From positions 416,001-480,000 of the forward strand of contig CAXXMU010000001.1 of assembly GCA_963667785.2 (NCBI GenBank): 64,000 bases of DNA, written 5' to 3'. Position 1 is the stretch's first letter, and the number at the start of each line of letters is the position of its first letter. The notes below the pieces were generated by a model that was not told the DNA's origin, made no database searches, and was given only the letters and a program-made list of their open reading frames with translations. This document shows, piece after piece, positions 31,101 through 56,164 of the stretch. The translations under genes were made by a program, and so were the position numbers. This DNA is from Alphaproteobacteria bacterium. Its GTDB lineage: Bacteria > Pseudomonadota > Alphaproteobacteria > UBA828.

Positions 31101-31316
31101 GAGGGAGACTTCCTCTTCCTCGCCTCCGCCGTCCGTCTCACTTTCTCCGACGCCCGACAGACCGAACCGTTCGTCTTCCTCGGCTCCCATGCGGGTTTCG
31201 CGCGGCCAAAGGATGCCGGTGAGATAGACATCCGACGGGCGTGATGTGAGAACTTCGTCCTCGGTGTATGGGCCGATCAGGTCCTGCTTCAGCCGGTCAA
31301 GCAGAGTTTCGCGCAC
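28113..31316 (-). CDS. drmA: DISARM DrmA helicase
   Basis: WRPFQL.FIL, LLWFPTGGGKTEAYL, RYTLRLLT.QQF, QDELHLISGPLG, YIQATSRVGR; directly upstream of drmB. Confidence 0.92.
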   Translation of the reverse strand: MRETLLDRLKQDLIGPYTEDEVLTSRPSDVYLTGILWPRETRMGAEEDERFGLSGVGESETDGGGEEEEVSLVGMSRPCSAGVSFAATAADAGAEVDVSVRFATYVPVTPEEDEIGPGSERGQSANDGRVRRRTEWRRKAYLIPVNGVALQDGARFTDLEPLGAPSGIRLHLRSAAWSGGTLATITLLNQAEPDEDEDREGIERLTLFQVRIEIRPRRGTVLVARPSRRAVLDDDDRSGALLYRNAHEFANGHTCSVEWEPGLEPATAGLVATTWTPTTKVHSTSSAGHEVFASLRTNAKHNPLSARWLAMAASDELADALHLLPAAYQTWIDARAAEVSSLSEEFRDQADKNITLCRDVHTRVAAGATRISEDAVMSRAFRLANLAMDVQHGWDPKKRERGPLEWRPFQLGFILLAAASVVDRQHPERRFMDLLWFPTGGGKTEAYLALIAFLAFFRRLSAADDPDRGHGVAAIMRYTLRLLTTQQFVRAAAVLLACEAIRRGRIPEAGVSRPELGSTPFSIGLWVGGEAVPNRVVDAAVALGGAPDQPTPKQLVQCPACRKQLTWEHDEQAGAIHVRCKNEECLLFDPEVPLPVWTVDEDVYRIRPTLLIGTIDKYAQIVRRKQVNTLFGLDTGQPPDLILQDELHLISGPLGTVAGLYEAAVDRMFSTGAVRPKIIGSTATIRRASEQVASLFDRETAQFPPPCIDADDSAFAVVDRDAPGRRYAGITTAGRSAKFTLQAVAASLLQSASNAPPDDPARDPYWTLVSYFNSLRELGGALVLMQDDVNDSLSIFAQRREETARQPEFIEELTSRRTQADVRDMLDRLEIPSVGEGALDVVLATNMLSVGVDIPRLGLMLVNGQPKGIAEYIQATSRVGRGDVPGLVVAVLNNAKARDRSHYESFPTWHETLYRDVEPTSVTPFASRARDRALHSVLVALVRHLVPGMLDRPALNDDALDAARDLIRDVVQRSSAIDPEETAVQMELERCLETWEFRAPESYWWPWRIGSSLLQDAERAATLRAMGRMPGEAWPTLNNMRSVEPSTQFRLAERLSERPSRGNDDGQ

Positions 31317-33438
31317 GCCCCCGCCTCCCTTTCTTGTTGCGACCGGGGAAAAACACCGTGCTGTAACCCAGGATCAGTGGTGCCAGCATGATCCCGCTGC
31401 TTCTCCAGGGCTCGTGAAGTGCCTCGCATTCGGGCGCGTCCGGGGGCAGGACGATTGTGCGGACCCCCTGTACATGCAGGTGCCGGATAGTGTCCGGGGG
31501 GCGTCTGCGGATTCCTCCAAGCTTTGCCTGAACGGCATCGGCGATGGCAAACAGGTCGGTATTCACGCTCTGCGACAGGACAGCCAGACAATGCCCACTT
31601 CCATCCTCCCTCAGGCGGAACGCGAAACGCGATGAGCGATCGCTTTCGGCCACGAGGGGTACGGACGCATCCGCAAAGCTGCGAATGCTGTTCTGGCTGG
31701 CGCGTACCGCGGCGCCGTTTGGGAAATAGGTGCGGCCGGCCAGACCTTCGGCGCCAATATCGGTGTCACGACCGATTTCGACCTGGGCGCGAGGTTTGCT
31801 GTCCCTTGTCTTGAGGCTGTATGCCCTGCCGGAACCCTCGACCCGGCTGGCGTACTGGCGATACCCGCGTCCGACCAGCAGTCGTGACCGCCCGCGTGTC
31901 GCACCCACAAAGACGACCCGGGCCTCTTCGTCCTGGTCAACGTGCTGGTTGTGTGTTCGGGGCAGCATCAGATGCACTGTGTCCGCCTCCCGGCCCTTGG
32001 AGGCGTGAATTGTGCCGACAATGGGACCGCTAAGCCCGAGCTCGGCGTGACACAGTTCCGCCGGCGGTTGTTTGCGCCCGAAACGCTGTCTTAACTGACG
32101 CATTTCAACCACTGTCCGAGTGCGCCCCGCCAGCCGAACCAAGGTAGCCCAGGCAAAATCGAAATCGCAGTTGGCGAGAGACGTGCCTTGCACCCTGTCG
32201 ACCCACAATTCCTCGAAGGTGCCCCTGTTCAGATCGGCTTCGGAATATTCGGACAATGCCGCTCCGATCCAGGGCGTGAGGCACACCGGCAGTCCTGACA
32301 TACGCACACGATGTGCAATGCCGTTCTGCGTCAACGTCGAACTGGTCTGCAGTACGTCGCAGCGCCTGCGATAGAGAATGAAGGCATCTTCAAGCTCTGC
32401 CAGTGCCGCATCGTCAACCCGCGGCGCTTCGCCATGTGCGAGGCTGATGATCTCATCCCTGATATCGGCGAGCTTGTCCGGTGTCTCACCTGCGGCGGTG
32501 AGTACCTTGCGGCGCGTGTCGGAGAAAATCTTGAGCAGCCGTCGAGAGCCGGTGCGATGCACGTCGGTCAATTCGCATTCCCGGAATTCACCCGCAGACC
32601 CACTTCTTATCCTCTCCGGGAATGTAGGCTCTCCGACTTCTCCTGGTCGGACCTCGCGGTCGTCGGCAAAGCCATAGATGGCCTGGGCTTCGTCGGCGAA
32701 GACGGTCACACCGCAGAAAGATGACAGCCTGCGGACAATATCGACGACAAGATCGGAGCGAATGCCAACGATATCCTGCGCCTCGTCAACGACTAGGTGC
32801 TCGATGCTCTCAAGGTACTCAGCGACACTTTCGTCTTCGCGAACGAGTTTGAGCACCCTCTCGATGTTTTCTTCGTAGGAACCCAGAATTCTGGCTTCGT
32901 CATCGAAGCCTGAATGGATCGTCCAGGCGTGCGAGTCGAGGGTGGCGATTTTCACCGCATAGGCCGCTGACGCATCTTCGAGATAAGCAGCGATTCGGTC
33001 GCGGATTTCGCGCACGGCAGTGCGCGTGAAACTGATCAGCCAGATGCGGCTCGGCTCCAGCCCGTCCTGGTCGATCAGCTGCGAGACCCGAGCGCAGGCA
33101 ACCGCGGTCTTGCCTGTGCCGGGACCGGCACCGACGAGAAGACGGTCCTCCTGCGGAGCGTCAATCACGTCCCTCTGCGACTTGTCCCACTCAATGAGGG
33201 CAGGGGGAACGACCTGGAATTCCGGCGCGACGTCACTCGCGTCCGCGTCGTGTGCGCTCTGCATATGCACGCCATCCGAGGGCGGGACATTGTCGAGATG
33301 GATCTGACCGCCATTGATCAACGGCCAGAACTGCTTCTTGTATTTGACGAATGGCTTGCCGTCGACATGACGAAGGGGACGCATCACCCGCGCGACTTCC
33401 TGCCCCTTCTTGAATATGCGGACCTCGATCTGCGCCAT
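31297..33438 (-). CDS. UvrD-like SF1 helicase
   Basis: AGPGTGKT, ISFTRTA, VDEAQD, TIHASKGRE, EEARVVFVGATR. Confidence 0.9.
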   Translation of the reverse strand: MAQIEVRIFKKGQEVARVMRPLRHVDGKPFVKYKKQFWPLINGGQIHLDNVPPSDGVHMQSAHDADASDVAPEFQVVPPALIEWDKSQRDVIDAPQEDRLLVGAGPGTGKTAVACARVSQLIDQDGLEPSRIWLISFTRTAVREIRDRIAAYLEDASAAYAVKIATLDSHAWTIHSGFDDEARILGSYEENIERVLKLVREDESVAEYLESIEHLVVDEAQDIVGIRSDLVVDIVRRLSSFCGVTVFADEAQAIYGFADDREVRPGEVGEPTFPERIRSGSAGEFRECELTDVHRTGSRRLLKIFSDTRRKVLTAAGETPDKLADIRDEIISLAHGEAPRVDDAALAELEDAFILYRRRCDVLQTSSTLTQNGIAHRVRMSGLPVCLTPWIGAALSEYSEADLNRGTFEELWVDRVQGTSLANCDFDFAWATLVRLAGRTRTVVEMRQLRQRFGRKQPPAELCHAELGLSGPIVGTIHASKGREADTVHLMLPRTHNQHVDQDEEARVVFVGATRGRSRLLVGRGYRQYASRVEGSGRAYSLKTRDSKPRAQVEIGRDTDIGAEGLAGRTYFPNGAAVRASQNSIRSFADASVPLVAESDRSSRFAFRLREDGSGHCLAVLSQSVNTDLFAIADAVQAKLGGIRRRPPDTIRHLHVQGVRTIVLPPDAPECEALHEPWRSSGIMLAPLILGYSTVFFPGRNKKGRRGRARNSA

Positions 33439-33499
33439 GACTTTGATTCTGAATTCGCCGCTAAGCGGCCATGAAATTCCTTGCAGGTTGGCGCACTTA

Positions 33500-33976
33500 T
33501 TATGTCCGTGTGTCGGAATTCTCGTATTCGGCGATTTCGGCCACGGCCTCCCGCCCCTGGCGAATGAAGGCCTCTGCGCGGCTCAAGACTTCCTGCACTG
33601 CCCTTCCGTGCCTGCCTCGCATGGCGCACTCCCAGACCACCAGCGTCCGCCACTCATCCGCCTTCAGCGCGGCCAGCGCATTCCGGTCCCGCTCCATGTT
33701 GCGGTTAATTTTGGTCCTCCAGAATGTGGCGCGGGTCTTGGGCCACCTGAACAGCGAGCATCCGTGACCATGCCAGAAGCAGCCGTGCACGAATACCACG
33801 GCTCGATGTCTGGGGAACACCATGTCGGGTTTGCCAGGCAAGTCCGCTCCATGAAGCCGGCAGCGGAGGCCACGCTTGTGAAGCCCGCGCCGGAGCAGCA
33901 TTTCGGGTTTGGTGTCCTTGCCCCGGATTCGGCTCATGACGAGCCGGCGCTGTTCCGGCGTCAATACGTCGGAGAC
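33500..33976 (-). CDS. vsr: Very short patch repair endonuclease
   Basis: MSRIRGKDTKPE, LPGKPD, FVHGCFWHGH, VVWEC. Confidence 0.95.
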   Translation of the reverse strand, partial: VSDVLTPEQRRLVMSRIRGKDTKPEMLLRRGLHKRGLRCRLHGADLPGKPDMVFPRHRAVVFVHGCFWHGHGCSLFRWPKTRATFWRTKINRNMERDRNALAALKADEWRTLVVWECAMRGRHGRAVQEVLSRAEAFIRQGREAVAEIAEYENSDTRT

Positions 33977-34007
33977 TTCGTCTCTTTCCGTGGAGGTACC
34001 CACGCCT

Positions 34008-35588
34008 TCAGGCTTCAACGGCGTTCCCCATTGCCGGCAAATCAGGTCGAACTCCGGTCGGTGGCGCCGAAATCGCGGAAGCCGCTGGGGTTGAGGACTG
34101 ACAAGGTTGCTGCTGCATCGGATGCGCGCTGTCCGTCGGCTGTAGTGTCTTCATGATTTCGGTGGCAATCGTTCGCGCCATCAGGGGTGGAACCGCGTTC
34201 CCGATCTGCCGGAAGGCTTGGTTCATTGCACCCATGAACACGAAGCCGTCAGGAAATGACTGCAACCGCGCCGCTTCCCGGACTGAAATCGTCCGGGCCT
34301 GGGCGCTGTCGTAGTGGATGTGGCTGTAACCGTCCTTGCTCAGATGCGCCATGACCGTGCGAACCGGCTGGTCCCGGGTGATCTTCCGCCACTTGTTCGG
34401 AAACTTGCCGGCGTCGTAGGGCGGTACGATCGAGCGTCGTAATACTTCATGCTCCGGTGATTCCGGCTCTATAGGTACGCCCTCCCCGGCGAGGCTGGAC
34501 AGCTCCTCACCGAGCATCTTCAGGGCGAGCCTATGTGCTTCCGGATACTGATCACCCTCCTTCATCCGTGCGAACAGCGCGTAGTCGCGAGGGAGGTACC
34601 GAATGACATGATCGTAGATGCCGTCTCCGGCCTCGTATCCTGCCCAGTTCTTCATCGAGCGGGCATAATCCGAATCGGGACGGTTCCCGTCGTAGGGGAC
34701 CGGGCTGTCGAAGCGACGCGCACCCCGCTTCAGCACGCCTTCTCGCATCAGCCTGCGGGCATCGATTCTTGGAAGATCGCCAATCGCCTCTTCGGCGGTT
34801 ACGGCAGGCGGCAGATCGCCAGTGGCCTGGGGTGGGTCCCGATAGTTGTGCGCCTGCTCGAACAGGTCACCATTGGACAGTACCTTCAGCGCGACCCGGC
34901 GCGACCCTTCATAGCCGCGAGGCAGCTCAACCCAATGCGTCGGTGCAGGAAAGCTGACATGTTGGGCAACGTCCCGATGATACGCGATCAGAAACATGCG
35001 CTCACGAGTCTGAGGTACGCCATAGAAGGCGGCGTTCAGCAGTGTGTAGGCGCTGACATACCCGAGGTCTTCCAGGACCTCGCAGACTTCTTCGGGGACG
35101 TTGTGCCCACCGAAATTCATCACGTCTGGCACGTTCTCCATCAGAATCGCCAGCGGGCGGCAGGACTTCACGTATTTGAGGTAAGGCGTATAGAGCGTGG
35201 CGCGCGGGTCGTGACGGAACGCCTCGGGATGCGCCTCGATCTCTCGCAGCTTCGACCTGCCGACCCGCGCGAAGGCTTGGCACGGCGGACCGCCGATGAT
35301 GACGTCGAAGGTCTCAGCAACCCTGCCGAGCTTCAGCGTCCGTACGAGCTGGGCGGGAGCTGTGGAGCTGATGTCACGGTCAACCGCGTGGCGCGGATCA
35401 TCCGCATGGAAGTTGGCGCCGTAGGAGGCCGCCGCCGTGGGATCGTTCTCAACCGCCGCAGCGATTTCGAACCCTGCTGCACTGAAGCCCAGGGAAAGCC
35501 CGCCGCACCCGGAAAAGAGATCGAGCACCCGAGGCCGTCCGCCGTTTCGAAGCCTCGACATCTTTTCCTGAATTATGCGTCTGGTCAC
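34008..35588 (-). CDS. DNA cytosine-5 methyltransferase (DrmMII-like)
   Basis: DLFSGCGG, GGPPCQ, MENV, PQTRER, REAARLQSFPD, QIGNAVPP; GTG start overlaps the upstream stop. Confidence 0.95.
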   Translation of the reverse strand: MTRRIIQEKMSRLRNGGRPRVLDLFSGCGGLSLGFSAAGFEIAAAVENDPTAAASYGANFHADDPRHAVDRDISSTAPAQLVRTLKLGRVAETFDVIIGGPPCQAFARVGRSKLREIEAHPEAFRHDPRATLYTPYLKYVKSCRPLAILMENVPDVMNFGGHNVPEEVCEVLEDLGYVSAYTLLNAAFYGVPQTRERMFLIAYHRDVAQHVSFPAPTHWVELPRGYEGSRRVALKVLSNGDLFEQAHNYRDPPQATGDLPPAVTAEEAIGDLPRIDARRLMREGVLKRGARRFDSPVPYDGNRPDSDYARSMKNWAGYEAGDGIYDHVIRYLPRDYALFARMKEGDQYPEAHRLALKMLGEELSSLAGEGVPIEPESPEHEVLRRSIVPPYDAGKFPNKWRKITRDQPVRTVMAHLSKDGYSHIHYDSAQARTISVREAARLQSFPDGFVFMGAMNQAFRQIGNAVPPLMARTIATEIMKTLQPTDSAHPMQQQPCQSSTPAASAISAPPTGVRPDLPAMGNAVEA

Positions 35589-35779
35589 AGCGCTTCCGGC
35601 TCCCGCTGCTCCTGATCGAACAGGTCCGGCTGAGGGTCGAAGGTTTCGCTGTCCAGGTGATCCCGGACAAGCCGGGCGATCAGCGGAGACTTCTTGTAGC
35701 CCTTTTCGCGGCAATAGGAATCGAAACGGTCTGCCTCCGCTTTCGACATCAGCACCTGGACGCGAACCAGATCAGACAT
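35585..35779 (-). CDS. Small ribbon-helix-helix-like regulator
   Basis: VRVQVLMS strand plus two helices; first gene of the operon and coupled to the MTase. Confidence 0.7.
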   Translation of the reverse strand: MSDLVRVQVLMSKAEADRFDSYCREKGYKKSPLIARLVRDHLDSETFDPQPDLFDQEQREPEAL

Positions 35780-36089: not shown

Positions 36090-36122
36090 GAACGCCGCTA
36101 AGTCATTGACTTAGCGGCGTTC
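36090..36122. terminator. Hairpin downstream of the duplicated tRNA 3' end
   Basis: GAACGCCGCTAAGTC-ATT-GACTTAGCGGCGTTC perfect inverted repeat. Confidence 0.7.
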
Positions 36123-36171
36123 TCAGTGGTTGCGGGGGTAGGATTTGAACCTACGACCTTCAGGTTATGAG
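36123..36171 (-). repeat. att site: duplicated 3' half of tRNA-fMet
   Basis: 49-bp direct repeat of 63858-63906 with 2 mismatches. Confidence 0.95.
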
Positions 36172-36321: not shown

Positions 36322-36341
36322 GTGTGATACGCCCTGCCGCC

Positions 36342-37529
36342 ATGGTCAACCGGATTCCACGCCTCACCAAGCGATCCGTCGACGCCATCAAGCCCGACGG
36401 CACCGATACCGTCTATTGGGACGGCGAGCTCACCGGCTTCGGGCTGCGGGTGCGCCAGTCCGGGCGGAAGGTCTACGTCGTGCAGACCCGAGTCGACGGG
36501 AAGCTTCGCTGGTACACCATCGGTGCGCCGGGGGTGATAAGCGCGGATGAGGCGCGGGCGAAAGCGCTGGAGGTCCTGGCCCTCGCCAAGAAGGGCATCG
36601 ATCCCCGTGACGCGGAGGCGAAGCGCGAGACCGAACCCACAGTGGTCGAGCTGGGACGGCGGTTTCTCGAGGAATATGTTCCGGACCACTGCAAGCCGAG
36701 CACCCAGCAGGAGTACCGCCGCTCGGTCAGGCTCTTCATCGATCCCGTGATCGGGGAGATGCGAGTCTCGGAGGTACAGCGCAAGGACATTGCCGCCCTG
36801 CACCACGGGCTCAGGGACAAGCCCTATCAGGCCAACCGGACGCTCGGGGTGCTCTCCAAGATGTTCAACATGTCGGAGATATGGGGCTGGCGGCAGGACG
36901 GCTCCAACCCGTGCCGGCATGTAAAGCGTTACAAGGAGCACCAGCGCGAGCGCTTCCTGTCCGAGGAGGAGGTCGCGCGCCTTGGCGAGGTCCTGCGCGA
37001 GGCCGAGGACGAGATGCCTTCGGCGGTCGCGGCGTTCCGGTTGCTGCTGCTGACGGGCTGCCGGATGTCGGAGATCAGGGACCTGCAATGGGAGCATGTG
37101 AAGGAGGATTGCATCGAGCTTCCCGACGCGAAGACCGGCGGGCGGGTGGTGCCGCTGGGGCCGGAGGCCCGCGCGGTGCTTTCAGCCATTCCCCGCGAGG
37201 ACGACAATCCCTGGGTCATCGCCGGCAAGCTCCCAGGCTCTCACCTCACCGACCTGCAGCGGCCGTGGCGGCGCATCCGCAAGCGGGCAGACCTTGAGGA
37301 CGTGCGCATTCACGACCTCAGGCACAGCTTTGCGAGCAGAGCGCTGGCGCTCGGCGAGAGCCTAACCATGATCGGCAAGCTCCTGGGCCACACTCAGGTT
37401 CAGACCACGGCCCGGTACGCCCACCTGGCTCGTGATTCCATGCAGAATGCCGCGTCCCGCATCACCGAGAGCATCAGCGGGAACCTGTTGGGCGACGAGA
37501 CCGAGAGTTTTCCGACAGCCTCCGGCTGA
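36342..37529 (+). CDS. int: Tyrosine integrase with an arm-DNA-binding domain
   Basis: WDGELTGFGLRV N-domain; TGCRMSE, KTG, HDLRHSFAS, LGH, RYAH catalytic residues intact. Confidence 0.96.
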   Translation: MVNRIPRLTKRSVDAIKPDGTDTVYWDGELTGFGLRVRQSGRKVYVVQTRVDGKLRWYTIGAPGVISADEARAKALEVLALAKKGIDPRDAEAKRETEPTVVELGRRFLEEYVPDHCKPSTQQEYRRSVRLFIDPVIGEMRVSEVQRKDIAALHHGLRDKPYQANRTLGVLSKMFNMSEIWGWRQDGSNPCRHVKRYKEHQRERFLSEEEVARLGEVLREAEDEMPSAVAAFRLLLLTGCRMSEIRDLQWEHVKEDCIELPDAKTGGRVVPLGPEARAVLSAIPREDDNPWVIAGKLPGSHLTDLQRPWRRIRKRADLEDVRIHDLRHSFASRALALGESLTMIGKLLGHTQVQTTARYAHLARDSMQNAASRITESISGNLLGDETESFPTASG

Positions 37530-37673
37530 CCTAACGGATCGATTTCAACAACGGTCCGTCCCACCACTGCCCCGCTTTACCTAGCGGATCACTCTGCGTC
37601 CCGCACCCATTGCCCCAACTGTCTGGAGATTACCCAATCTGTACACTGTGACCATGCTCTTGCACCGAAGAAA

Positions 37674-38291
37674 TCAGATACCCACAGCCATTCCACAGGG
37701 TTCGGGAAAGAAAGCCTGGTATGCAAGCATAGCCGCGATAATCATTATGCCTGCGTAGGCTAGCCATAATCCGTTTCTCAAGGCTTGGTAAGCTGTTTCA
37801 TTGCGTAGCTGACGAATGATATTCATAGTCTCCTGACAAGCGAGGGCTTCCGCGAGAATTTTCTGATCATTCTGACTTTGCAACAAGAACCTAGTCCCAT
37901 AACCATAGGTTGGGAGCGTACGAAGCGCACCCAGCGCCACAAAACCCGCCGCCAGAACATACAGCACCCCACATCCGATCACTACTATCGATATAGTCTG
38001 GATAGTATCCGACGATATGAGGTTGGTAAGAAAGGCTGCCGTTAGACCCAACACCGTTAGCCCAACTGACAAAGACAAAGTCAACTTAAATGTTTTTTCA
38101 TCCATACTAGAAGCGCGCTGATGCTCATCGCTGAGGCGTTGTTGGAGCCCAGATACAGAAATGGTCTCATAGTCGGCGAACTGCGGTTCTTGTAGGAGGT
38201 TCTCTGAGAAGCACTGTTTTTTCTTGCGTCGCGCACGTACCACATAATACCCGAAGGGGAAGATTTCTTCGGTAATGCGAGAAATACACAT
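37674..38291 (-). CDS. 3-TM membrane protein, effector-like
   Basis: R..MDEK followed by two TMs, a soluble linker, a helix and a third TM; starts 9 bp after the ATP-grasp gene. Confidence 0.75.
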   Translation of the reverse strand: MCISRITEEIFPFGYYVVRARRKKKQCFSENLLQEPQFADYETISVSGLQQRLSDEHQRASSMDEKTFKLTLSLSVGLTVLGLTAAFLTNLISSDTIQTISIVVIGCGVLYVLAAGFVALGALRTLPTYGYGTRFLLQSQNDQKILAEALACQETMNIIRQLRNETAYQALRNGLWLAYAGIMIIAAMLAYQAFFPEPCGMAVGI

Positions 38292-38300
38292 CCAACTTTC

Positions 38301-39257
38301 CTACTGGTTGTCCTTGGGTGGATTCTGCAACCAAGATGCTATTGCAGAGTCCATCGGGCGATCACAGGTTGACAACCAGCCCCATTCTCCGGTGGGATTA
38401 ATCTCAATGAAAAAGATACCGTTGGGTGTTTCGATTAGATCAATAGCGCCAAAGGATAGACCGAGCTGACGCACCAGTAATCGGCATCGACTGGTCATGT
38501 CATCGCTCAACTCCACATCACGATATTCAAGCTCAGATTTTGGAAGTACGCGCCAATCACCTGATACCCCATTGCCGCCTGATAGTATCTGGACAGCAAA
38601 AACCTCTTCACCGATGACCGTAACTCTTAGATCTATCTTATCTTCCAAAGCGTGTTGTGCGAGAAACGGCACCGCTCTAATGGCCTCCTCGGTCAAATCA
38701 TCACAAGAGCTTATTGTCGTGTAAGTGAATAAACAATCGTCACCATCCCGCAGTAGAACGGTATCCAAAGACTTCACCACCAGTGGCCCTGGAAATGTCC
38801 GCCGAATACGCGTAGCGTCGTTAGTGGCAAGTGTTGTTGGAACTCTAAAGCCACAACTTTTGGCTACACTAAGCTGATATGGCTTTGACTCCGCGATATA
38901 CGTGGCAGTTGGTGAGTTCATCCACGTCGCGTCACGAAAGACGCAGAGGCCTCGAAGAAACGCAGTCCATTGAGACCGCTCAAGCTGCTGCTGTGGACAA
39001 AGCGGCTCAGAGGGGGTGTTACGCAGAAAGACGGGCTGACGAAACCAAACGGAACTGAGATCCTGACCGACGACATGGGTCCCGGCCGGACCACGCATAG
39101 TCAACTCGGGAACGAGAGGATCGAGAGTGAGGTGATAATCCGCTAGCTGCTCACGGTTTAGGCGAACATAGGGGACGCCAGCTTTTTGCAGTCGCAGGGT
39201 AACTAAATCTGTGGAAAAGTCATACAGCCCAGCAAGGATAAGAACGCGTGTTGTCAT
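38301..39257 (-). CDS. ATP-grasp ligase, MvdC/MvdD (graspetide) type
   Basis: VWFRQP, WMNSP, AESKPYQL..A...GF.VPTTL.TN, VVKSL, DLRVTVIG, DWR, FGAIDLI, FIEINPTGEWGWL. Confidence 0.9.
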   Translation of the reverse strand: MTTRVLILAGLYDFSTDLVTLRLQKAGVPYVRLNREQLADYHLTLDPLVPELTMRGPAGTHVVGQDLSSVWFRQPVFLRNTPSEPLCPQQQLERSQWTAFLRGLCVFRDATWMNSPTATYIAESKPYQLSVAKSCGFRVPTTLATNDATRIRRTFPGPLVVKSLDTVLLRDGDDCLFTYTTISSCDDLTEEAIRAVPFLAQHALEDKIDLRVTVIGEEVFAVQILSGGNGVSGDWRVLPKSELEYRDVELSDDMTSRCRLLVRQLGLSFGAIDLIETPNGIFFIEINPTGEWGWLSTCDRPMDSAIASWLQNPPKDNQ

Positions 39258-39460
39258 TCGCCTTTCTGATCTTCGCCTGTTTCTTGATCACACTTCTTGG
39301 TGGTGGGTCCGCCATTGGCAAACTCGTCCACCGTAACGATCGGTACGCCATCCTGTAGCCAATAGCCTCGGGCGGCATCATATTGAGCACCAGACGGCAA
39401 TTCAGGTGTCATGCGATAGGGCCGACGGGTCGCGAAGGTCATCAGTACATGCTCAGCCAT
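39254..39460 (-). CDS. Putative ATP-grasp-modified precursor peptide (68 aa)
   Basis: C-terminal core TTKKCDQETGEDQKGE with Thr/Lys donors and Asp/Glu acceptors; stop overlaps the ligase start (ATGA). Confidence 0.82.
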   Translation of the reverse strand: MAEHVLMTFATRRPYRMTPELPSGAQYDAARGYWLQDGVPIVTVDEFANGGPTTKKCDQETGEDQKGE

Positions 39461-39952
39461 ATTCTTTGTCCCGTTTGTGGTGCTTCTCGTATGCTTGGGC
39501 CATCCCTCCCACCCGATATATGGCGTGAGGTGGGCTCGTGGCGTAGACCAGAGGAGCCGCCGAGTCAACCTCGGTTCCGACCGGATCCGTCCGCAACGCA
39601 GACGAGGTCGGTGCCTACCGGCTCCGGCTGAACGACGGTAAACATCAGCCCCATTTTGCGCTCTAAGGTCGTCTCGAACGCGTCGGCATGCTCCTGCATC
39701 GCACTGTGCGTCCCCATAATCGTCCAGCGCTCGAACAAGTAGCCACTCGCGAGACCAAATCGCGTGAACGGGCTGGGAGGTGGCAAAGAATATGGTCTTT
39801 GCTCTCCAGAGTCGTAGAAAACCATATTAAACGTGTTTCTTGCCACCGGTTCGGCGAAATAGGTAGCGCGCAAGCCGTTTCACCATTGAAGGACTAAGTG
39901 TCATGTCATATATGGTTATCATAGACTTTCAACAAGTCTCCAACAAAGCGCC

Positions 39953-40762
39953 ATGTCCAGGCTCATATCAGCGCCGTTCTTCAGTGCGCACCCTGTCTTC
40001 CGCCGCGCCGAATACGCCGCCGCCGTCGGCCGCGAGTCGGGCGACAAGGTCGTCACGGCGATGCTGGGCCAGCATCTCAAAGCAGGCAACATCCGACGCA
40101 TCGCCCGCCAGGTCTTTGCGTCCGTCCCCAAGCACGCCGACGCGCGAACGTGGTCCGTTGACCGCTTCCTGGCAGCCTCGCGGCTGCGCCTGGGTGGCGT
40201 GATCGCCTATCACTCGGCCCTGGAGCTGCACGGCTATGCCTATTCCGAGGGGTACGACGTGCAGGTCATCGCCCCCGGTGAACCGCGCATGTTCGAGGCC
40301 AACGGCCTTACCTGCCGGTTCGTCAGGCCGCCTCGGGGCTTCACCGGACCGAACGGAGCAGCGACGGACGGCGTGACAGCGGTCGATCGCCTGGGACTGG
40401 ATGTCAAGGTGACGACGCTCGAGCGCACGATCACGGACCTGTTCGACCGTCACGATCTTGCCGGAGGCGCAGAGGAGCTGTTCAACTCGCTTGATTTGGT
40501 GGCGCGCGTCGACGCCGGAGCGTTGGTTCGGCATGCGCGCGCGCGCGGCAACGCCGCGGCTGCCGGCGCACTCGGTTTCTGGCTGGAGCACGAACAAGAG
40601 AGGCTGGGCGTGCCGCAACGTGCCCTCGCAGATCTCCGGGCGCTGGCGCCCCCCAGGCCACGATATGCGCTGGGTGCCAAACCTGGATCGGCAAGGACGA
40701 CCGGGCATTGGAACGTCATCCTTCCTGTCGACGTCGCCGAACGCCGGTTCGAGGGGCTGTGA
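39953..40762 (+). CDS. abiEi: AbiEi-type antitoxin/transcriptional regulator
   Basis: N-terminal wHTH, IAYHSALELHG, VTTLERTITD; directly upstream of abiEii. Confidence 0.85.
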   Translation: MSRLISAPFFSAHPVFRRAEYAAAVGRESGDKVVTAMLGQHLKAGNIRRIARQVFASVPKHADARTWSVDRFLAASRLRLGGVIAYHSALELHGYAYSEGYDVQVIAPGEPRMFEANGLTCRFVRPPRGFTGPNGAATDGVTAVDRLGLDVKVTTLERTITDLFDRHDLAGGAEELFNSLDLVARVDAGALVRHARARGNAAAAGALGFWLEHEQERLGVPQRALADLRALAPPRPRYALGAKPGSARTTGHWNVILPVDVAERRFEGL

Positions 40763-41740
40763 ATGGCGCCGCCCACCGTACAGACATTGCAGCGCCTCGC
40801 CGGCGAAACCGGATACCAGCCGGACACGCTGGAAAAGGTGCTGCGGCTCCTGGACCTGCTGGATGAGATTGCCGGAGACCCGTTGCTGTCCGAACGCCTC
40901 GTCCTCAAGGGCGGAACGGCGCTCAATGTCTTCCACCTCAATCTCGACCGGCTCTCGGTGGACATCGATCTGAACTACATCGGCGCGCTCGACCTGACGA
41001 CGATGGCAAGCGAACGGCCTCACGTCGATGCCGCGATCGACCGGCTCCTCACCTCACAGGGCTACGCCGTCCGGCGCCGCCCCACCGAGCACGCCGGCGG
41101 CAAATGGCTGTCGCGCTATGCTTCCGCTCTCGGTGGCAACGCCTCCCTAGAGTTGGATGTGAACTACATGGCGCGCCAGCCCTTGTTCGGCGCAGCCCGC
41201 ATGGAGTCCCGTCTCTTCGGCGAGCTTCGGACGAGCCGCGTTTTCGTCCTCGATCTCCATGAGATCGTCGCCGGAAAGATCGTGGCGCTCTTCGACCGGC
41301 ACGCCGCACGCGACTTGTTCGACGTGCGCCGCATCCTATCAATCGAGGGGATCAACTGGGGCTGGATCAAGGCCGCAGTCCTGGCCATCGGCGTTTGCAA
41401 CCGCCGTGATTGGCGAATGGTGTCAACCGACGCCATTGCGTGCGACCCGCGCGAGTTTCGTCGGAACCTCGCCGTCTGCCTTCCGCGTGGCTCCCTTGCC
41501 GACGGCAAGGATATCGACACGTGGATCGAGCACACCGCGGCACTTTGCCGCGAAAGGCTCACATTCCTGTTCGATCTCTCGGCCGATGAACGGAAGTTTC
41601 TCGATGATGTCCTCGACCGGGGCAAGGTCGAAGCCGATCTTCTCGACGTCGAACCTGAAATTCGGACGCGAATCCGCGCCATGCCCATGCTCGCGTGGAA
41701 ATCTGAGCACGTTCGAAGGCATCATGGTCTCAACCCGTAG
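40763..41740 (+). CDS. abiEii: AbiEii nucleotidyltransferase toxin
   Basis: LEKV, LKGGTALN, RLSVDIDL, K..AL..R..ARDLFD. Confidence 0.92.
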   Translation: MAPPTVQTLQRLAGETGYQPDTLEKVLRLLDLLDEIAGDPLLSERLVLKGGTALNVFHLNLDRLSVDIDLNYIGALDLTTMASERPHVDAAIDRLLTSQGYAVRRRPTEHAGGKWLSRYASALGGNASLELDVNYMARQPLFGAARMESRLFGELRTSRVFVLDLHEIVAGKIVALFDRHAARDLFDVRRILSIEGINWGWIKAAVLAIGVCNRRDWRMVSTDAIACDPREFRRNLAVCLPRGSLADGKDIDTWIEHTAALCRERLTFLFDLSADERKFLDDVLDRGKVEADLLDVEPEIRTRIRAMPMLAWKSEHVRRHHGLNP

Positions 41741-41912: not shown

Positions 41913-42512
41913 CTATTTTAATCGGTACTCATAGGATACTTTTCTAACCTTACCCGCCTTGTGATCTTCGATTAGTTGAGCCATGACGCATCTTGCCGCC
42001 TCAACGCCATATTGCTCATTATATCGGTATGCTTGATTAAGCATAGTAAGCCAATCCTCGCCGGATACACCATCTGGTCGAGCAAATCCTAACTCTCCTA
42101 ATCTACGCAGTGTTATTGCAAAGTCGGCACCTAATTGTATACCTTCGTGGTGTCCTAGTTCATCCGGTGTATCTAGTCGCTCCAAAAGATGTTTCGTACC
42201 ATCCCGTAACAACCTTAATATTAAGTCTTGCACTTCATTGCTTTGTCGAGACAAAAGCTCAGCTTTCTTACGTCTGCGGCGTTTCCTAAATTCAACACAC
42301 CAGATAAAATATGGCCAACTAAAATACAAAAAACTACCAATTCCAATAATAATCAAACCAACGTAGATGGATTGGACGTCTATAATCGCCTCAAACAGTT
42401 CTTTGGCTTTTTCCGAAGGACCGGAAAAAAACTGTTGGGTAACGGCTCCAATCCATCCCACACTTACTATGCTGCCCGCCGCGCGAGCCGCATTCTTTCC
42501 CTTCGTGTCCAT
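41913..42512 (-). CDS. Hypothetical membrane protein, AT-rich
   Basis: 199-aa ORF with N-terminal TMs followed by a basic stretch. Confidence 0.65.
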   Translation of the reverse strand: MDTKGKNAARAAGSIVSVGWIGAVTQQFFSGPSEKAKELFEAIIDVQSIYVGLIIIGIGSFLYFSWPYFIWCVEFRKRRRRKKAELLSRQSNEVQDLILRLLRDGTKHLLERLDTPDELGHHEGIQLGADFAITLRRLGELGFARPDGVSGEDWLTMLNQAYRYNEQYGVEAARCVMAQLIEDHKAGKVRKVSYEYRLK

Positions 42513-42714
42513 ACATGAATATTACATTTTTTGTCCAAAATTGCAATAACTCTCTATTTCAGACTCTGTAGAAACTTTGTTCCCGAATCGTTAGCGAATG
42601 GTAGTGGTTCATTGGAGCGGCTCGGATCCTCGAAACATAGGCGGAAGAGTCGGATTCTCTCACCATTACTATGTGCTTTCTATTAGAGATCTATGTTGAA
42701 TTCAGCATAAGACA

Positions 42715-43320
42715 TTCGCTCCGATTCTGTCGGCGACGCGCGCCGACGACGCCTTGATCGAATCGCGCGCCAGACGCGTTTAGCGCGGGGTCGTGTCGAT
42801 CTCGCTGTGTCCGAGCAGCTTGCCGATCACCGGCAGAGACTCCTCGAGCGCCAGGGCGCGGGACGCGAAGGAGTGGCGAAGGTCGTGAAGCCGGACGTCC
42901 CCCCTGTCCAGTCCTAGTGCGGACGGTCTGCCAAACATGGTCGAGGCCGCCGCCGCTGTAGCGCCCGTGCTGGTCGTTGCCGGAGAACACCCAGGGGCTG
43001 CCCTTGCGCCGCGGCATCGCTTCGAGCAGGCGCACCGCCATCGGTGGCAGGTGGGCCGTGCGCGGTCAGGCCTTGGCGTCCGCGAGGCGGAACTCGCCGG
43101 CGTCCAGATCGACGTGGGCCCAGCGCAGGGTGAAAATTTCGCTCTTACGGCAGCCGGTCAGCATCAGCAGGCAGATAGCCGCCACGGCCTTGGGCGACGC
43201 GACGCCGTCCGCGGTGGCCCGGTCCAGCACCTGTCCCAGCCGAGTGACCTCGGCATCGGTCAGGAAGCGCTCGCGCGACCGCTCCGGGTACTTCACGACC
43301 GATCGGCAGGGATTGTTCAG
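42715..43320 (-). pseudogene. Degraded tyrosine integrase (catalytic half)
   Basis: RERFLT...LTGCRKSE...DAK*, then in other frames PWVF and LHDLRHSFASRALAL..SL..IGKLLGH; paralogous to the intact integrase. Confidence 0.88.
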
Positions 43321-43378: not shown

Positions 43379-44902
43379 TCAAACAACGTCACCGTTCCAA
43401 ACCAGCGGCTCGCTCGTTTCCGAGTCCATAACGCCGTCCAGAATTGGCGGAGACGCCGGGTCCGCCTTCGCATGATCGAGTTGACGTTGTGTCAAGCCGC
43501 GAGCCGGAGATGCAGAATCATTCATCCAATCGCGCGAGAAGTCGGTCCCGCTCAAGATGGCATCGACTAGATTCGCGTCGGTCAGATCTGCGTTACCCAG
43601 ATTTGCGCCTGCCAAATTCGCCTTGGTCAGCTCGGCCCTGTTCAGGTCCGCACCTGCCCCCCCGAGGTTGGCGTTACTCAAATCGACTCCGCCCAGCTTT
43701 GCATCTTTCAAACTTGCCGCCCTGAGATCCGCTCCGCTCAAGTTCGCACCGCCGAGATGAGCAGCATCGAGCTTGGCGCCCCCCATCGATGCCCCACGCA
43801 TGTCCGCACCGCCCAACTCCGCTCCTCGCAGATCCGCTCCTTCCAATTGAACTCCCACCAATCTCGACGGGAACAGGCTTCCCTTCCAAAGATTCTGTCC
43901 CACTCGGTCAACAAGGCCCAGATTGGCATCTCGCAGATCAGCCCCGATCAGTCTGGCGGCAGACAGGTTCGCCCTCCTCATGTCGGCGCCACGGAAATTG
44001 GCGCCAGGCATATTCGCGGCCGACAAATCTGCGCCCGGGAGAACGGCGTTGGCCAAACAGGCTTGCCAGCCCCGTACACGACGCAGATCCGCCATTGTGA
44101 AGTCGAAGTTCGAGAAGTTCGCACCGTGGAAGACAAGACCGGGCAGGCAGGCATCGGTGAGATTCATCCTGAACGTTTCCTCGCTCTCCAAGGCGATCTG
44201 TGCTTCGCTCCGCTGAGCAATCTGAGTCATGACCGTCTCGATGTCTTTTGCCAGCTCAGGGACCGGTCCGACTTTCCGATCGGCGACGAAGAACGGACCG
44301 TAATGCTCTGCCGGCGCTGACTCGAACCATGGAGCATCCTTTCGGCCTGCTTCCTCTTCATCAATTTCAGCATCGTCCGTATCCGGTTCGCGATGTTCTT
44401 CGTCTCCGGGCGTTTCTGACTCTTCCGGCGGCTCGACGCGCTCCACTGCGTCTCCTCTTGTCCGGTCTACAACAAACGCCGAAAAGAGCTGCATGACCGG
44501 CATATGGAAACTGGCCGGATACTCGCTCGCGAGGCGGGCCAGAGCGTGGATACCACCGATGCGGACCGATCCGATATCAGCATTGCCCAGCATTTCAGCG
44601 CCCTTCTGAAACCGGTCATTCAATAGCATCTGCACCGTGGTATCCGATTGGCGGCGCGCAGCATCCGCTTGACGTTCGGCCACAGTGCTACGCCACATCG
44701 CAAGCGGAAGGCCGATCGCAGCCGCGAGCATCAAGCCGAGGTTTCGAAGCGTTGTGCTGGCCGATTCTCCGCCGGTCAGCCACGCCGGACAGGCAACCCA
44801 GGCGGCGCCCGCTGCGACGACCAAAATCACCGTCCACGCTACGATCCACCACGGCAACGGAATCCGGCTGCAGAAGCGGCGCATCTGTCTCAATCGGGTC
44901 AT
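43379..44902 (-). CDS. Pentapeptide repeat membrane protein
   Basis: Two N-terminal TMs, RIGGIHALARLA, many A(D/N)Lxx repeats, GLTQRQLD. Confidence 0.92.
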   Translation of the reverse strand: MTRLRQMRRFCSRIPLPWWIVAWTVILVVAAGAAWVACPAWLTGGESASTTLRNLGLMLAAAIGLPLAMWRSTVAERQADAARRQSDTTVQMLLNDRFQKGAEMLGNADIGSVRIGGIHALARLASEYPASFHMPVMQLFSAFVVDRTRGDAVERVEPPEESETPGDEEHREPDTDDAEIDEEEAGRKDAPWFESAPAEHYGPFFVADRKVGPVPELAKDIETVMTQIAQRSEAQIALESEETFRMNLTDACLPGLVFHGANFSNFDFTMADLRRVRGWQACLANAVLPGADLSAANMPGANFRGADMRRANLSAARLIGADLRDANLGLVDRVGQNLWKGSLFPSRLVGVQLEGADLRGAELGGADMRGASMGGAKLDAAHLGGANLSGADLRAASLKDAKLGGVDLSNANLGGAGADLNRAELTKANLAGANLGNADLTDANLVDAILSGTDFSRDWMNDSASPARGLTQRQLDHAKADPASPPILDGVMDSETSEPLVWNGDVV

Positions 44903-45651
44903 GACTCCGCTTCCCTCGTGGCCTCGTGCAGGATCGACGCCCGCCGCTTCGCGTCCGCCTCGCCACATGCACAGCATCGCCGGACGCTCACTTGCTCATC
45001 CATAATACAAGCGTGTCCGGCTCCAAACCCGCGGCTCGCAGTTCTGCGAACGACATTGCCGGCTCACGCTCGTCGCTTCGCGACGTCGCCCTCTTCGGTT
45101 TCGCCGTCCAAGGTGAAGAGCGACGCCACTGGCGCCATCGTCAAGCACACTGCCACATCGCTTCTGTCCTCATTGAGCACTTCGCGCTCAACGCGTCCTC
45201 CCACCCTCCCGCCCTCCCATACCCATGATGGTGCTGACACTTACGTCGTCCATCCCGCTGCGACGTCCCGTCAGCCCTCGCGCCGCTCATGCGCCCGACA
45301 TCGTCTCCTCGTCTTGCTCGATCATGCGCTCTCCAAAGCCACCGCGCTCGCCTTCGAGGCTCAGCCGCAAGCGGATTCCGCTTCACTGGATCCTTCCTCG
45401 TCGCCTCCGCTCCGATGCCCGCCATGATGGACGGCTTCGCCACCGGAATCGGAGCCCCTGCGACAAGAATCGTCACCTGATTCGCTCCGATCATCGAATT
45501 TTTTCGCCATGCGCACGCCCAGACACGCCGGTACATCTGGTGATCACTCGCCACGGAGGCCCCACATATGGTGTTTGCAGCGAGGACTGTGCTATGCAGA
45601 CAGCATGCGCTCCGGGACAACACATCGAGGAAAATGTGGCTCTTCACACCT

Positions 45652-45853: not shown

Positions 45854-48800
45854 GTGGTAGCGACGCTCGCCCAGGCCGCTTCGGCCGCCTACTACCTGGA
45901 GAACCAGCGCTCGTTCCGCCATCCGAACGAGTACTACACGGCGGGCGAGGAGCCGGACGGGGTCTGGTTCAACCCGAATGACCTGTTCGGCCTGAAGGAC
46001 GGCGGCAAGGCCGACAGCGCGGACTTCCACCGCCTCTATCACGGCTTCGCGCCGGACGGCTCGGGCAGGCTGACCCGGAACGCGGGCAGCGAGAAGCGCT
46101 CGCCCGGCCTCGACATGACCTTCTCGGCCGACAAGAGCGTCTCCGCGCTCTGGGCCATCGCCGATACCGAGCTGCGCGGCGAGATCGAGCAGGCGCACAA
46201 CGATGCCGCCCGTGTCGCGCTTGAGGAGACGGTGTTCCGCCACTGCGCCTGGACCCGCATCCGCGACCGCCACGGGCAGATTCAGGTTCTGTCCGCGGAT
46301 CTCATGGCGGCGATGTTCCAGCACGGCACCAGCCGGGACAACGACCCGCAGCTTCACACCCACTGCGTGATCTTCAACGCCGCGAGGACCCACGAGGACG
46401 GCAGGTGGCGGGCGATGCATCAGCACCCGGTCTACGGCTGGGTGAAGGCGGCGGGCGCAGTCTATCGGAACACGCTGGCCTGGAACCTCCAGCAGCAACT
46501 CGGCCTACCCATCGAGCAGTACGGCCAGGACGGGGAGTTCACTCGGATTGCAAGCGTTCCGGAAGACCTGGCGGCACACTGGTCGAAGCGGCGGGCGGCG
46601 ATCGTCGATGCGGCGAACGACATGGGCTTCAAGGTCGAGGGCAACGCCGCACGCGCGGCGGCGGCGAACAAGATCACCAGAGCGGGGAAGTCCCCCGACA
46701 ACGACCCCGAAGTGCGTCATGAGCGTTGGCGGGGCGAGGCAGAGAGTTTCTGCGAGCGCGAGGCGCTGATCGCGGAGCTGCTGGGCAAGGCCGAGGACAT
46801 CACCCAGGAGCAGCTGCGCGATCTCACCGCAGTGTTGGAGACGCTGCCGGAGCGCCTGACCCGGGAGGAGGCGGTGTTCCGCCTGCCGGACGTGGTGGAG
46901 CGCGTGAGCAACTTGACGGCGGGGTTGCTCGGCCGGGAAGCGGCGGCGACCGCGGTAGAGCGCGTCATGCGTCACCCCTAGGTGGTGCGGCTGACCCGCA
47001 TCCCCCGCTCCGCCGAGGGCCGCGCGGACATGGCCCATACCAGGCTCTACACCACCGGGCGCACGCTTCAGATGGAGCAGGCGCTACACGACATGGCCGC
47101 AGGCATGGCGGCCGAAACGGGCCACGGCCTCCCCGCCCAGGCGATCGAGGAGAAGATCGCATCGCTCATAGAGCGAGGCTATCCGCTAAGCGAGGAGCAA
47201 GCGCACGCGATCCGCGCGGTGGCCGGCGCGGGCGGACGGGTGGCGATCGTCGAGGGCGCGGCCGGCTCGGGCAAGACCACGACGCTGAGACCCCTCGCCG
47301 ATCTCTGCCGCGAGCACGGGGGTACGGTGATCGCCACCGCGGTGGCGTGGCGCACGGCGGTGGCGCTCGGCAACGACCTCGATGCCCGCCCCTTCTGCGT
47401 GGACAAACTGCTCAAGCTCGCGGCGAAGAACAGTATCGAGATCGACGGCGACACCACCATCGTCGTGGACGAGGCGGGGATGCTGTCGACCCGCCAGGCG
47501 CATCACATCCTGCGGCTCGCGGATCGCCACCATGCCCAGGTGGTGTTTGCGGGAGACACCAGGCAGCAGCAGCCGGTGGAGGCGGGGCCGGGCTTGCGGC
47601 TGATCCGGGATGCCGTGGGTAGCGTCCGGGTGGACCGCATCAGGCGCCAGAAGCCCGACCTCGAGGACATCCAGGTCCACGTCCACGGCGAGTCTCCGTC
47701 CGCTGCGCGCTTCCGGGGCGGTTTGATGGGCGACGTTGAGCGTGCCCGCATCTTCGCCGACTACGAGGCGATGGAGAACAAGCCCGCCTTCACGCCCTGG
47801 CAGGTGGCAGTGTCGGAGGCGCTGAGGGACGGTGACGCGGCCGCCGCGATCGAGGCGTGGCACGAGCGGGGCCGGTTCCATCTCGGCTACAACGAGGAGC
47901 GGACGCTCACGGCCTTGGTGGACGAGTGGGACCGCTACACGAGGCAGCACACGGACAAAAGCGCCGCGGTGCTGGCGCGCACCCGCGCCGAGGTGCGGGC
48001 GCTGTCGCACCTGATGCGCGAGAAGCGCTTCGCCCGGCAGCGAGACCTTGAAAGCTCAGACATCGAGCGCGTCACGGTGATGGTGAGCCGGGGGACGGAG
48101 GACGACAGGACGGTCTCGCCGCTCGAGATCGCCGCCGGCGACCGGCTCCGCATCGGCGCCACCTGCTGGGAAAAGCAGCTCTTCAACGGCACCGTGGTCA
48201 CGGTGGAGGATCTCGAAGTCCTGCACGGGGAACGCAAGCCCGCCGGGCACGGGGCCGGGACGAAGGCGAGGGACCGCGAACCGGGAGAGGACGAACCCTC
48301 CGTCCTGATAACCGCGTGCACCGACGACGGGCGTCGGGTGACCTTCCGCCACGATGAGATCCGCGACTGGTACGGCAACATCCGCCTCGACCACGGCTAT
48401 GCGCTCACCATAGCCGCCGCCCAGGGGCTGACCGTGGACCGCACCTTCATGCTGGCGGACGACCGGCCGGCACGGGAGACCATCTATCCGGCGGCGACCC
48501 GTCATCGCGAGGAGATCGACATATACGTCAACCGCGCCCCGCTGGCGCTGGACGTGGCCGCCCGGCGGGCGGACAGCGATCGCGAGGCACCGGTACTCGA
48601 TAGTGAGATTCGGGCGTACCTGGCGGAGCGCTGGTCGCGCGCCAGGCCCAAGGAGGCGGCGCTCGACTACATGGGCGTGGGCGACTGGGAGGATCGGGAC
48701 ATCCATCGCCGCGCCGGCGGCGACCTGCGCCATGATGAAGCGGCCGAGGCTCGCGCGGCCGCCAACGACAACGCGCTCACGCGCATTGCGCGAGACGTGC

Positions 48801-56160: not shown

Positions 56161-56164
56161 GCGC

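Follow-up and report, generated by a model that had tools for sequence, protein, structure and literature searches.

A mobile group 7 graspetide cassette with a conserved membrane partner: a possible intracellular anti-phage module

We analysed a stretch of 64,000 nt from an alphaproteobacterium of the UBA828 lineage (assembly GCA_963667785.2, contig CAXXMU010000001.1, positions 416,001 to 480,000 of the forward strand), and this whole stretch is called the window below. The analysis concerned a 1.8-kb cassette of three genes, which encode the precursor of a graspetide, an ATP-grasp ligase and a three-pass membrane protein. A first-pass annotation of the DNA had described the trio as a tight unit between an island integrase and an AbiE module and had proposed that it forms a peptide-based defence system. 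Chemically, the locus is one more cluster of the marinomonasin type, and its interest lies in what such clusters do.

The three-gene cassette and its mobile element

The cassette and the features that define its setting are listed by their position in the window (ORF, open reading frame; att, attachment site).

39254..39460, minus strand: graspetide group 7 precursor, 68 aa (ORF; cluster171 consensus from the gr_07 rows of the Makarova 2022 supplement; alignment A7)
38301..39257, minus strand: ATP-grasp graspetide ligase, 318 aa (ORF; NCBIfam TIGR04187, E 3e-56, under its cut-off)
37674..38291, minus strand: three-pass membrane protein (P0003), 205 aa, fixed partner of the ligase (ORF, homologues, AlphaFold model)
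36324..37529, plus strand: tyrosine integrase of the host element (Pfam PF00589, PF13356)
39953..41740, plus strand: AbiEi-AbiEii module adjoining the cassette (PADLOC, E 1e-78 and 4e-102)
37509..39762: variable cargo slot holding the cassette; DNA missing from the related element of congener G430
36091..36171: left att repeat, an 81-nt direct repeat and copy of the 3' end of tRNA-Met, edge of the 27.7-kb integrative element
63826..63938, minus strand: tRNA-Met gene (63862-63938) and right att repeat (repeat copy 63826-63906)

The ATGA overlap and the 9-bp gap that join the three minus-strand genes were present as described, and the flanking integrase and AbiEi/AbiEii genes were recovered by Pfam and PADLOC, respectively. 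The cassette was also more AT-rich than its flanks, its GC content being 50.4%, whereas the integrase reaches 66.1%, AbiE 65.0% and the genome as a whole 69.7%. ORF and translation agreed on a 68-aa peptide with one C-terminal core, and the 205-aa protein indeed contains three hydrophobic stretches (residues of about 70-90, 95-123 and 175-195). Among the flanking ORFs scanned with Pfam and NCBIfam, none encoded an exporter, a peptidase or an acetyltransferase, which was also in agreement with the annotation. Since the same arrangement recurs in dozens of genomes, it is not due to chance. A 104-aa version of the precursor, extended to a TTG start, was rejected; the homologues begin at the Met at 39460. 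A promoter scan of the cassette found no promoter, terminator-like matches were present, and a look-up of RNA holders listed none for it.

The precursor has a conserved leader, H-x-L ... Y-D-x3-G-Y-W, followed by a single C-terminal core, TTKKCDQETGEDQKGE, and it ends with GGPTTKKCDQETGEDQKGE. Both leader and core matched the cluster171 consensus HILL...YDxxxGxW...TKKxDxETGEDQKGE. In the supplement to Makarova et al. 2022, the rows of cluster171 bear the label of Lee group 7 (gr_07), and Marinomonas fungiae JCM 18476 is among them (PMC8939145). Judged by sequence, precursor and ligase belong to this already catalogued graspetide group 7 (cluster171, marinomonasin type). Membership of the microviridins (group 1) was rejected: the precursor lacks the PFFARFL leader and the group 1 core, and the ligase scored below the equivalog cut-offs of TIGR04184 (102/475) and TIGR04185 (132/425). 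The ligase had been called MvdD-type. It is a graspetide ligase, but the MvdD label is loose, as the best NCBIfam match was TIGR04187 (190.7 bits, cut-off 350), followed by MvdC (132, cut-off 425) and MvdD (102, cut-off 475), and no equivalog score was reached. The ligase family profile matched the solved AMdnB, CdnC, 5IG8/5IG9 and 7DRM, down to E 1e-34. Residues K125, K162, Q201, D234-W235-R236, D273, E285 and N287 were invariant in 48 homologues; they are the ATP/metal-binding and DWR residues, whose roles were reportedly established in MdnC.

In the rows of the Makarova supplement (PMC8939145), group 7 members come from Proteobacteria, Bacteroidota, Bacillota and archaea, and the core was nearly invariant across phyla among 57 distinct precursors. 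Our precursor pattern fixed seven core residues, so that only the remaining positions are independent evidence of conservation: T/S was found in 56, T in 56, G in 56 and G in 54 of the precursors. A looser pattern recovered the same cores. A GG just before the core was present in only 5 of the 57. Two loci (L027:9553-9977 and L034:9554-10001) carry two diverged tandem precursor genes ahead of a single ligase gene.

The two 81-nt repeat copies (36091-36171 and 63826-63906) are 88% identical, and they bound a 27.7-kb element integrated at tRNA-Met. In the congener G430 the integrase ends about 37 bp from the region before AbiE and the slot is empty; positions 37509-39762 therefore represent a swappable slot. 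Searches of 20 other genomes of the genus did not recover the cassette. Behind related integrases in eight further regions (one of them cut by a contig end; cargo read by BLAST to annotated neighbours or by eye), the slot held a type ISP-like methylase, a ThiF-domain protein, DUF499 and HerA-like genes, a PIN-like gene, cas3-like genes, an ATPase among insertion sequence (IS) copies, or a HATPase/PAPS-reductase-like set. Several slot cargoes in relatives are of defence type (AbiE, type ISP-like methylase, DUF499, cas3-like genes).

Linkage of the membrane gene and neighbourhood of the cassette

For the linkage analysis, 50 GTDB loci were collected with the ligase alignment and 18 metagenome loci with the membrane-protein alignment. 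A homologue of the membrane gene lay directly downstream of the ligase gene in 44 of the 50 GTDB loci (profile A1), and the membrane gene of locus L044 was recovered by a broader profile (36 bits). Loci L048 and L049 have multi-core precursors of another type. Their membrane family aligned with that of the cassette (hhalign 95%), with a score of 56.8 against 34.2 for the best of 15 shuffles, a comparison from which the ORF of L050 was excluded, as it proved unrelated. L008 and L047 stop at a contig edge and L050 is an IS-broken remnant, so that the membrane gene followed the ligase gene in 47 of 48 assessable loci. The conservation of this gene beside ligase homologues, on which the first-pass annotation had staked its proposal, is thus well borne out. 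Conversely, ligase sequence was found upstream of the membrane gene in 15 of the 18 metagenome loci, and the other three are cut inside the membrane gene. When 897 ORFs from the 68 loci were clustered, a fourth conserved gene did not emerge, and a short-chain dehydrogenase in five loci made up the largest of the other protein clusters.

The trio also occurs with multi-core precursors in Leptospira phage LE1 (L116, KF114876.1), on a Pseudomonas plasmid (L117, LT969519.1) and in one genome (L136). As far as sequence comparison can tell, the membrane-gene family extends to several graspetide groups, including these multi-core loci. The precursor of the Leptospira phage (L116, KF114876.1) is annotated too short.

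Some copies of the cassette are damaged. In L004 and L057 an intact membrane gene accompanies a ligase gene with an in-frame stop, and in L054 it accompanies a damaged junction of precursor and ligase; these three copies come from metagenome assemblies, in which assembly errors are possible. The membrane gene is broken next to intact ligase and precursor genes in L007 (IS insertion) and L005 (truncated near a contig end). L046 and L050 retain no intact part of the cassette. That either gene can be lost before the other speaks weakly against a constitutive toxin and also against an essential immunity gene, with assembly errors being possible.

The AlphaFold model of the membrane protein is all helical (mean predicted local distance difference test score 84). 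Short N-terminal helices are followed by a helix of residues 46-89 that runs into transmembrane helix 1 (TM1), by TM2 (95-124) and by a helix of residues 143-194 that runs into TM3. Among 85 homologues, almost all positions conserved at 70% or more fell within residues 1-69 and 123-174, together with Y111 in TM2, and no position at this level was found in the TM1-TM2 loop or in the tail. As the basic N-terminus is predicted to lie inside, the conserved face would be cytoplasmic. The modelled charged bundle on the cytoplasmic side fits a cytoplasmic binder, and it fits an outward-facing immunity protein poorly; effector and channel are not distinguished by it. When searched with Pfam, NCBIfam and PADLOC, the membrane protein and 77 of its homologues matched membrane families only weakly and inconsistently. 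Fold searches with the model (Foldseek against PDB; VIA wide, best Z 9.7) returned generic helical bundles, a search of BFVD returned nothing specific, and a PDB sequence search with alignment A3 gave no match. A complex prediction for membrane protein and precursor gave no answer (score 0.00, run without controls) and is no evidence either way.

We compared the neighbourhood of the cassettes with that of ordinary chromosomal positions. Within 5 kb of the cassettes, 380 of 384 called ORFs of at least 120 aa were scanned with Pfam; four duplicate ORFs of L068 were excluded, and three near-duplicate loci were set aside. The controls were windows of 11 kb at an arbitrary round coordinate, one on the cassette contig of each of 20 genomes (162 ORFs, same scan). 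From both sets, 84 chosen proteins, most of them without a Pfam match, were also searched with PADLOC. Within 5 kb of the cassette, 14/20 genomes had a defence or toxin-antitoxin family, compared with 5/20 of the paired control windows; the choice of genomes was not blind. Discordant pairs numbered 9 to 0 (p 0.004), or 8 to 0 without a case with PIN only. When all loci with full flanks were considered, 20/35 had a defence family compared with 5/20 controls (p 0.027). The enrichment near defence genes that had been anticipated is present and modest. Since the controls represent ordinary chromosome and not island cargo, this result supports residence in islands more firmly than a function in defence. 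The GC content of the cassette was more than 3 points under that of its flanks in 33/35 loci.

Defence genes next to or near cassettes included HmaB (L001), a type ISP restriction-modification enzyme (L006), BrxL (L012), PD-T7-4 (L018), Hachiman (L058), the TIR protein of Thoeris (L064) and PD-Lambda-4A (L037, L067). In L001 (9798-14589) the cassette stands directly ahead of the HmaB methylase gene, and in L023 it follows DUF1156/HEPN/DUF499 genes; both look like cargo embedded in Hma/BREX-related systems. Prophage late regions hold the cassette in L033, L043 and L115, near lysozyme, terminase and portal genes. INPHARED contained two distant records, and IMG/VR one contig, with a precursor identical to that of the prophage locus L033; the cassette is not a common phage cargo. 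In L032 it is set in a series of numerous short ORFs, most of them on one strand, that may represent an integron array.

The remaining features of the window surround the cassette at a greater distance.

26282-35714, minus strand: DISARM-like cluster (DrmB, DrmA, UvrD-like helicase, Vsr, cytosine methyltransferase; PADLOC)
41913-43300: 199-aa membrane ORF without a family match and, on the opposite strand, second-integrase remnants; inverted repeat with 36930-37004
43379-44977, minus strand: membrane-anchored pentapeptide-repeat protein, 532 aa (named pentapeptide families all under cut-off)
45854-50722, plus strand: TrwC/MobF-like relaxase region, apparently split into ORFs of 375 aa and 1246 aa (by eye)
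50986-63714, plus strand: helicase-like ORFs of 1724 aa and 921 aa, a 1324-aa methylase-like ORF and a 257-aa ORF, at the far end of the element (by eye)

The DISARM-like cluster was rejected as a part of the same element, as it sits just outside the left att repeat; its position suggests that islands are stacked at tRNA-Met. The ORF set at 50986-63714 is probably a further defence operon.

A proposed intracellular role and its alternatives

The interpretation that we consider best placed, at slightly less than an even chance, is that the cassette serves against phages from within the cell, with the membrane protein mediating the action of the cross-linked peptide. From the chemistry of the family, the ligase would bind the conserved leader and use ATP to cross-link Thr/Ser and Lys to Asp/Glu in the core, probably three times. 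The product would stay in the cytoplasm, perhaps with its leader attached, because no protease or exporter is conserved with the cassette. The membrane protein, with its predicted topology and its measured conservation in the charged helical bundle, would be the peptide's receptor and also its effector. If it behaves like PycTM-type effectors, phage infection may lead to the release, processing or displacement of the peptide, upon which the membrane protein would oligomerise, damage the inner membrane and abort the infection. In a variant of this mechanism the peptide itself would, like lanthiphage peptides, block a step of the phage and would be anchored by the membrane protein. Two wider claims appear unlikely to us. 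One is that a ribosomal peptide with stapled side chains fills the place of the cyclic-nucleotide messenger in gating a PycTM-related membrane effector, as a form of peptide-signalled abortive defence. The other, to which we give the same odds, is that group 7 and several multi-core graspetide groups together form a widespread immune system with a peptide-gated effector and are not natural-product clusters.

The likeness to PycTM was evaluated with a reference alignment of 20 rows, taken from PF18967 matches in 401 genomes. A trimmed global alignment of the membrane family to PycTM was collinear and scored 24.6, compared with 15.6 for the best of 40 block shuffles. On the PycTM profile, 233 family members had a median of 0.6 bits (maximum 11.0), and 160 membrane ORFs of the source genome had a median of -2.05 (4.2). 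In the ESM Atlas, PycTM was the nearest named family, with a score of 0.90-0.92 and a share of 11% among cluster members. A precomputed PF18967 tag is attached to homologue P0044; the 25 families listed in the Pfam scan of the 77 family members do not include PF18967. Two relatives of 164 aa (L137:1486-1977 and L138:1483-1974; wider context in L140 and L141) have no ligase within 6 kb. They scored 25-26 bits on the profile of the membrane family and 14.5-18.7 bits on the PycTM profile. By hhalign these bridge proteins aligned to the membrane family of the cassette with 94% and to the PycTM alignment with 59.5%, the latter with a score of 32 against 24.8 for the best of 25 shuffles. Such stand-alone proteins are candidate single-gene defence effectors. 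One of them adjoins a CHAT-domain gene (match to PDB 8TL0) and an ATPase/HNH-like pair, and the other adjoins an SMC-like set of three genes.

Several points weigh against an anti-phage role and against the PycTM relationship on which part of it leans. The direct hhalign comparison with PycTM gave 10% with raw and 17-29% with trimmed alignments, P0003 itself reached only 0.1 bits on the PycTM profile, the A6-PycTM score of 32 was exceeded by one shuffle (39.6), and the score of 48.0 between the bridge proteins and the membrane family was barely over the best shuffle (46.9). Among the families listed, Pfam PF18967 was reported for no bridge protein, for P0003 not at all, and for 0/77 and 0/20 family members at E 0.1. 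With these values and the generic folds, the assignment to a Pycsar/SLATT-type effector that the first-pass annotation had favoured is not established, and we give a remote relationship to PycTM perhaps even chances. PADLOC had no model that matched any of the three cassette proteins. Regarding the neighbourhood, the 20 paired genomes were picked after the neighbour scan had been seen, and defence calls were made by judgement; they counted DNA methylases, PIN and AAA_21, and at 25% the rate among controls was high. Genomes that are related do not count as independent, and greedy ORF calling can miss genes. No defence family was present at 15/35 full-flank loci, and the cassettes of L013, L020, L022 (the Marinomonas fungiae locus), L025, L031 and L035 lie among metabolic genes. 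Those of L024 and L026 lie in contact-dependent-inhibition loci, which would suit competition between cells equally well, and location in an island does not separate defence from other mobile cargo. Group 7 clusters often include an acetyltransferase or a drug-efflux transporter according to Carter et al. 2026 (PMC13097080); near the cassettes such genes were only sporadic (GNAT in L018, LysE genes in L022). A single C39-peptidase domain was found in the source genome, in a 740-aa ORF on another contig and unlinked to the cassette (G000:C6:335324-335701), and this ORF is the sole candidate for a leader-cleaving exporter detected there. Finally, Makarova et al. read a comparable membrane partner (that of cluster 18) as a likely peptide transporter (PMC8939145).

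The main alternative is that the cassette makes an ordinary secreted graspetide, such as a protease inhibitor, a bacteriocin or a signal. The membrane protein would then be a minimal oligomeric export channel or provide self-immunity, and a host protease would remove the leader. We regard this as somewhat unlikely, and we hold to the same degree its corollary that defence genes lie nearby only because both ride on mobile islands. Loci that lack standard exporters do have the membrane gene, which is the argument made for cluster 18 by Makarova et al. (PMC8939145), and multi-core precursors of unrelated type go with the same membrane family, as would be expected of a general transporter. The loci without defence neighbours and the unlinked C39-peptidase ORF point the same way, and all functionally characterised graspetides are protease inhibitors according to a 2026 preprint (10.64898/2026.08.04.741601). 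However, the membrane protein crosses the membrane with three TM helices and has neither an ATPase nor a conserved outer face, and relatives of it exist without a ligase within 6 kb. The broken membrane genes beside intact ligase and precursor genes in L007 and L005 are contrary to an essential immunity function. The core hardly varies across phyla, and defence neighbours exceed those of the matched controls; both observations speak against secretion.

The membrane protein might instead take part in biosynthesis, as a partner or scaffold that keeps ligase and precursor close to the membrane or aids removal of the leader, with a separate role of the peptide. Its near-obligate linkage to the ligase and its cytoplasmic conserved face would suit this, and partner-dependent graspetide synthesis is documented (PMC13097080). 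Nevertheless, stand-alone homologues of the membrane protein exist, and no protease-type motif was evident in the alignment of the family. Moreover, Gra-3 of group 7 was threefold dehydrated when made in E. coli (PMC9576775), possibly with its membrane gene present. We consider a scaffold improbable.

It is less probable still that the cassette is an addiction module, in which the membrane protein is a constitutive toxin restrained by the cross-linked peptide and stabilises the mobile element. The low GC content and mobility of the cassette and the adjoining AbiE module in the window would agree with this idea, but the loci with an intact membrane gene beside a ligase stop (L004, L057) or a damaged precursor-ligase junction (L054) weaken the notion of the peptide as a restraint, with the reservation already made about their assembly. 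That the ligase tags other proteins in the manner of RimK, with the peptide incidental, is very improbable, because a cognate precursor lies directly upstream throughout the family; the ligase does have a weak RimK-family match (E 1e-4) and homologues are labelled 'RimK-like' in the sources, but graspetide-maturase models score far higher, and group 7 precursors were dehydrated in heterologous expression (PMC9576775).

Comparison with known systems

The trio combines a membrane gene tied to several graspetide groups, a location in defence-rich cargo slots and a weak link to an abortive-infection effector. If the proposed intracellular role is true, it would add an immune signal of a new class and would change the view of a whole set of 'orphan' clusters for peptides made by the ribosome and modified after translation (RiPPs). 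It would also be an anti-phage role for graspetides, which we did not find in print. Our literature search found neither an anti-phage graspetide nor a description of the membrane family, and subscription papers or supplements may already note the membrane gene. The words 'defense' and 'abortive' are absent from the main text of Makarova et al. (PMC8939145), and 'phage' and 'defense' from that of Carter et al. (PMC13097080).

The closest known relatives are the members of group 7, with which the cassette precursor shares the consensus of leader and core. The three genes recur in identical order at the M. fungiae JCM 18476 locus (L022), whose ligase and precursor are 52% and 49% identical to those of the cassette; from strain and group this would be the marinomonasin locus. 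We saw no structural difference between the cassette and group 7 as represented by marinomonasin and by Gra-3 of Bacillus sp. S66. Both of these peptides lose three waters as ester/amide bonds form between side chains, and the accessible literature on them treats the chemistry only, with no biological role and no membrane gene (PMC9576775). Multi-core graspetide loci (thuringinin type; possibly Makarova cluster 18 or 40) have the same gene order of precursor, ligase and membrane protein. The membrane proteins of L048, L049, L116, L117 and L136 are homologous to that of the cassette (hhalign 95%), whereas their precursors have repeated cores in place of a single core.

Pycsar, reportedly described by Tal et al. 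in 2021, is said to act through a PycTM effector (PF18967). As in Pycsar, the enzyme gene of the cassette adjoins a gene for a membrane protein, and the layout helix-[DE]xK-TM-TM-P-loop-helix-TM of the latter aligns end to end with PycTM. In contrast to PycTM, the cassette protein has an extra conserved N-terminal E-x-F-P-F segment, and the similarity is below detection by Pfam. The enzyme of the cassette makes a peptide and not a cyclic nucleotide, and no match to the pyrimidine cyclase family was found in the three cassette proteins with Pfam, NCBIfam or PADLOC. As the enzyme is an ATP-grasp ligase and neither a cyclase nor a fourth conserved gene is present, the cassette is not a Pycsar system. 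Nor is it a member of the cyclic oligonucleotide-based antiphage signalling systems (CBASS), since PADLOC gave no match for the three proteins, including to the signal enzyme CD-NTase.

Lanthiphages are intracellular anti-phage RiPPs that were discovered via defence islands (Shomar et al. 2024, 10.1101/2024.06.26.600839). In the accessible text they differ from the cassette in their LanB/LanC lanthionine chemistry, in their restriction to Actinobacteria and in that no membrane partner is named (10.1101/2024.06.26.600839), whereas the enzyme of the cassette is an ATP-grasp ligase. Like the cassette, they are RiPP clusters that lie in defence islands and share a conserved core motif, and they act inside cells (10.1101/2024.06.26.600839). 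Co-location with defence genes above background, as in lanthiphage-like anti-phage RiPP systems, was found for the cassette in the paired comparison and among the 35 full-flank loci, with the non-blind selection noted above.

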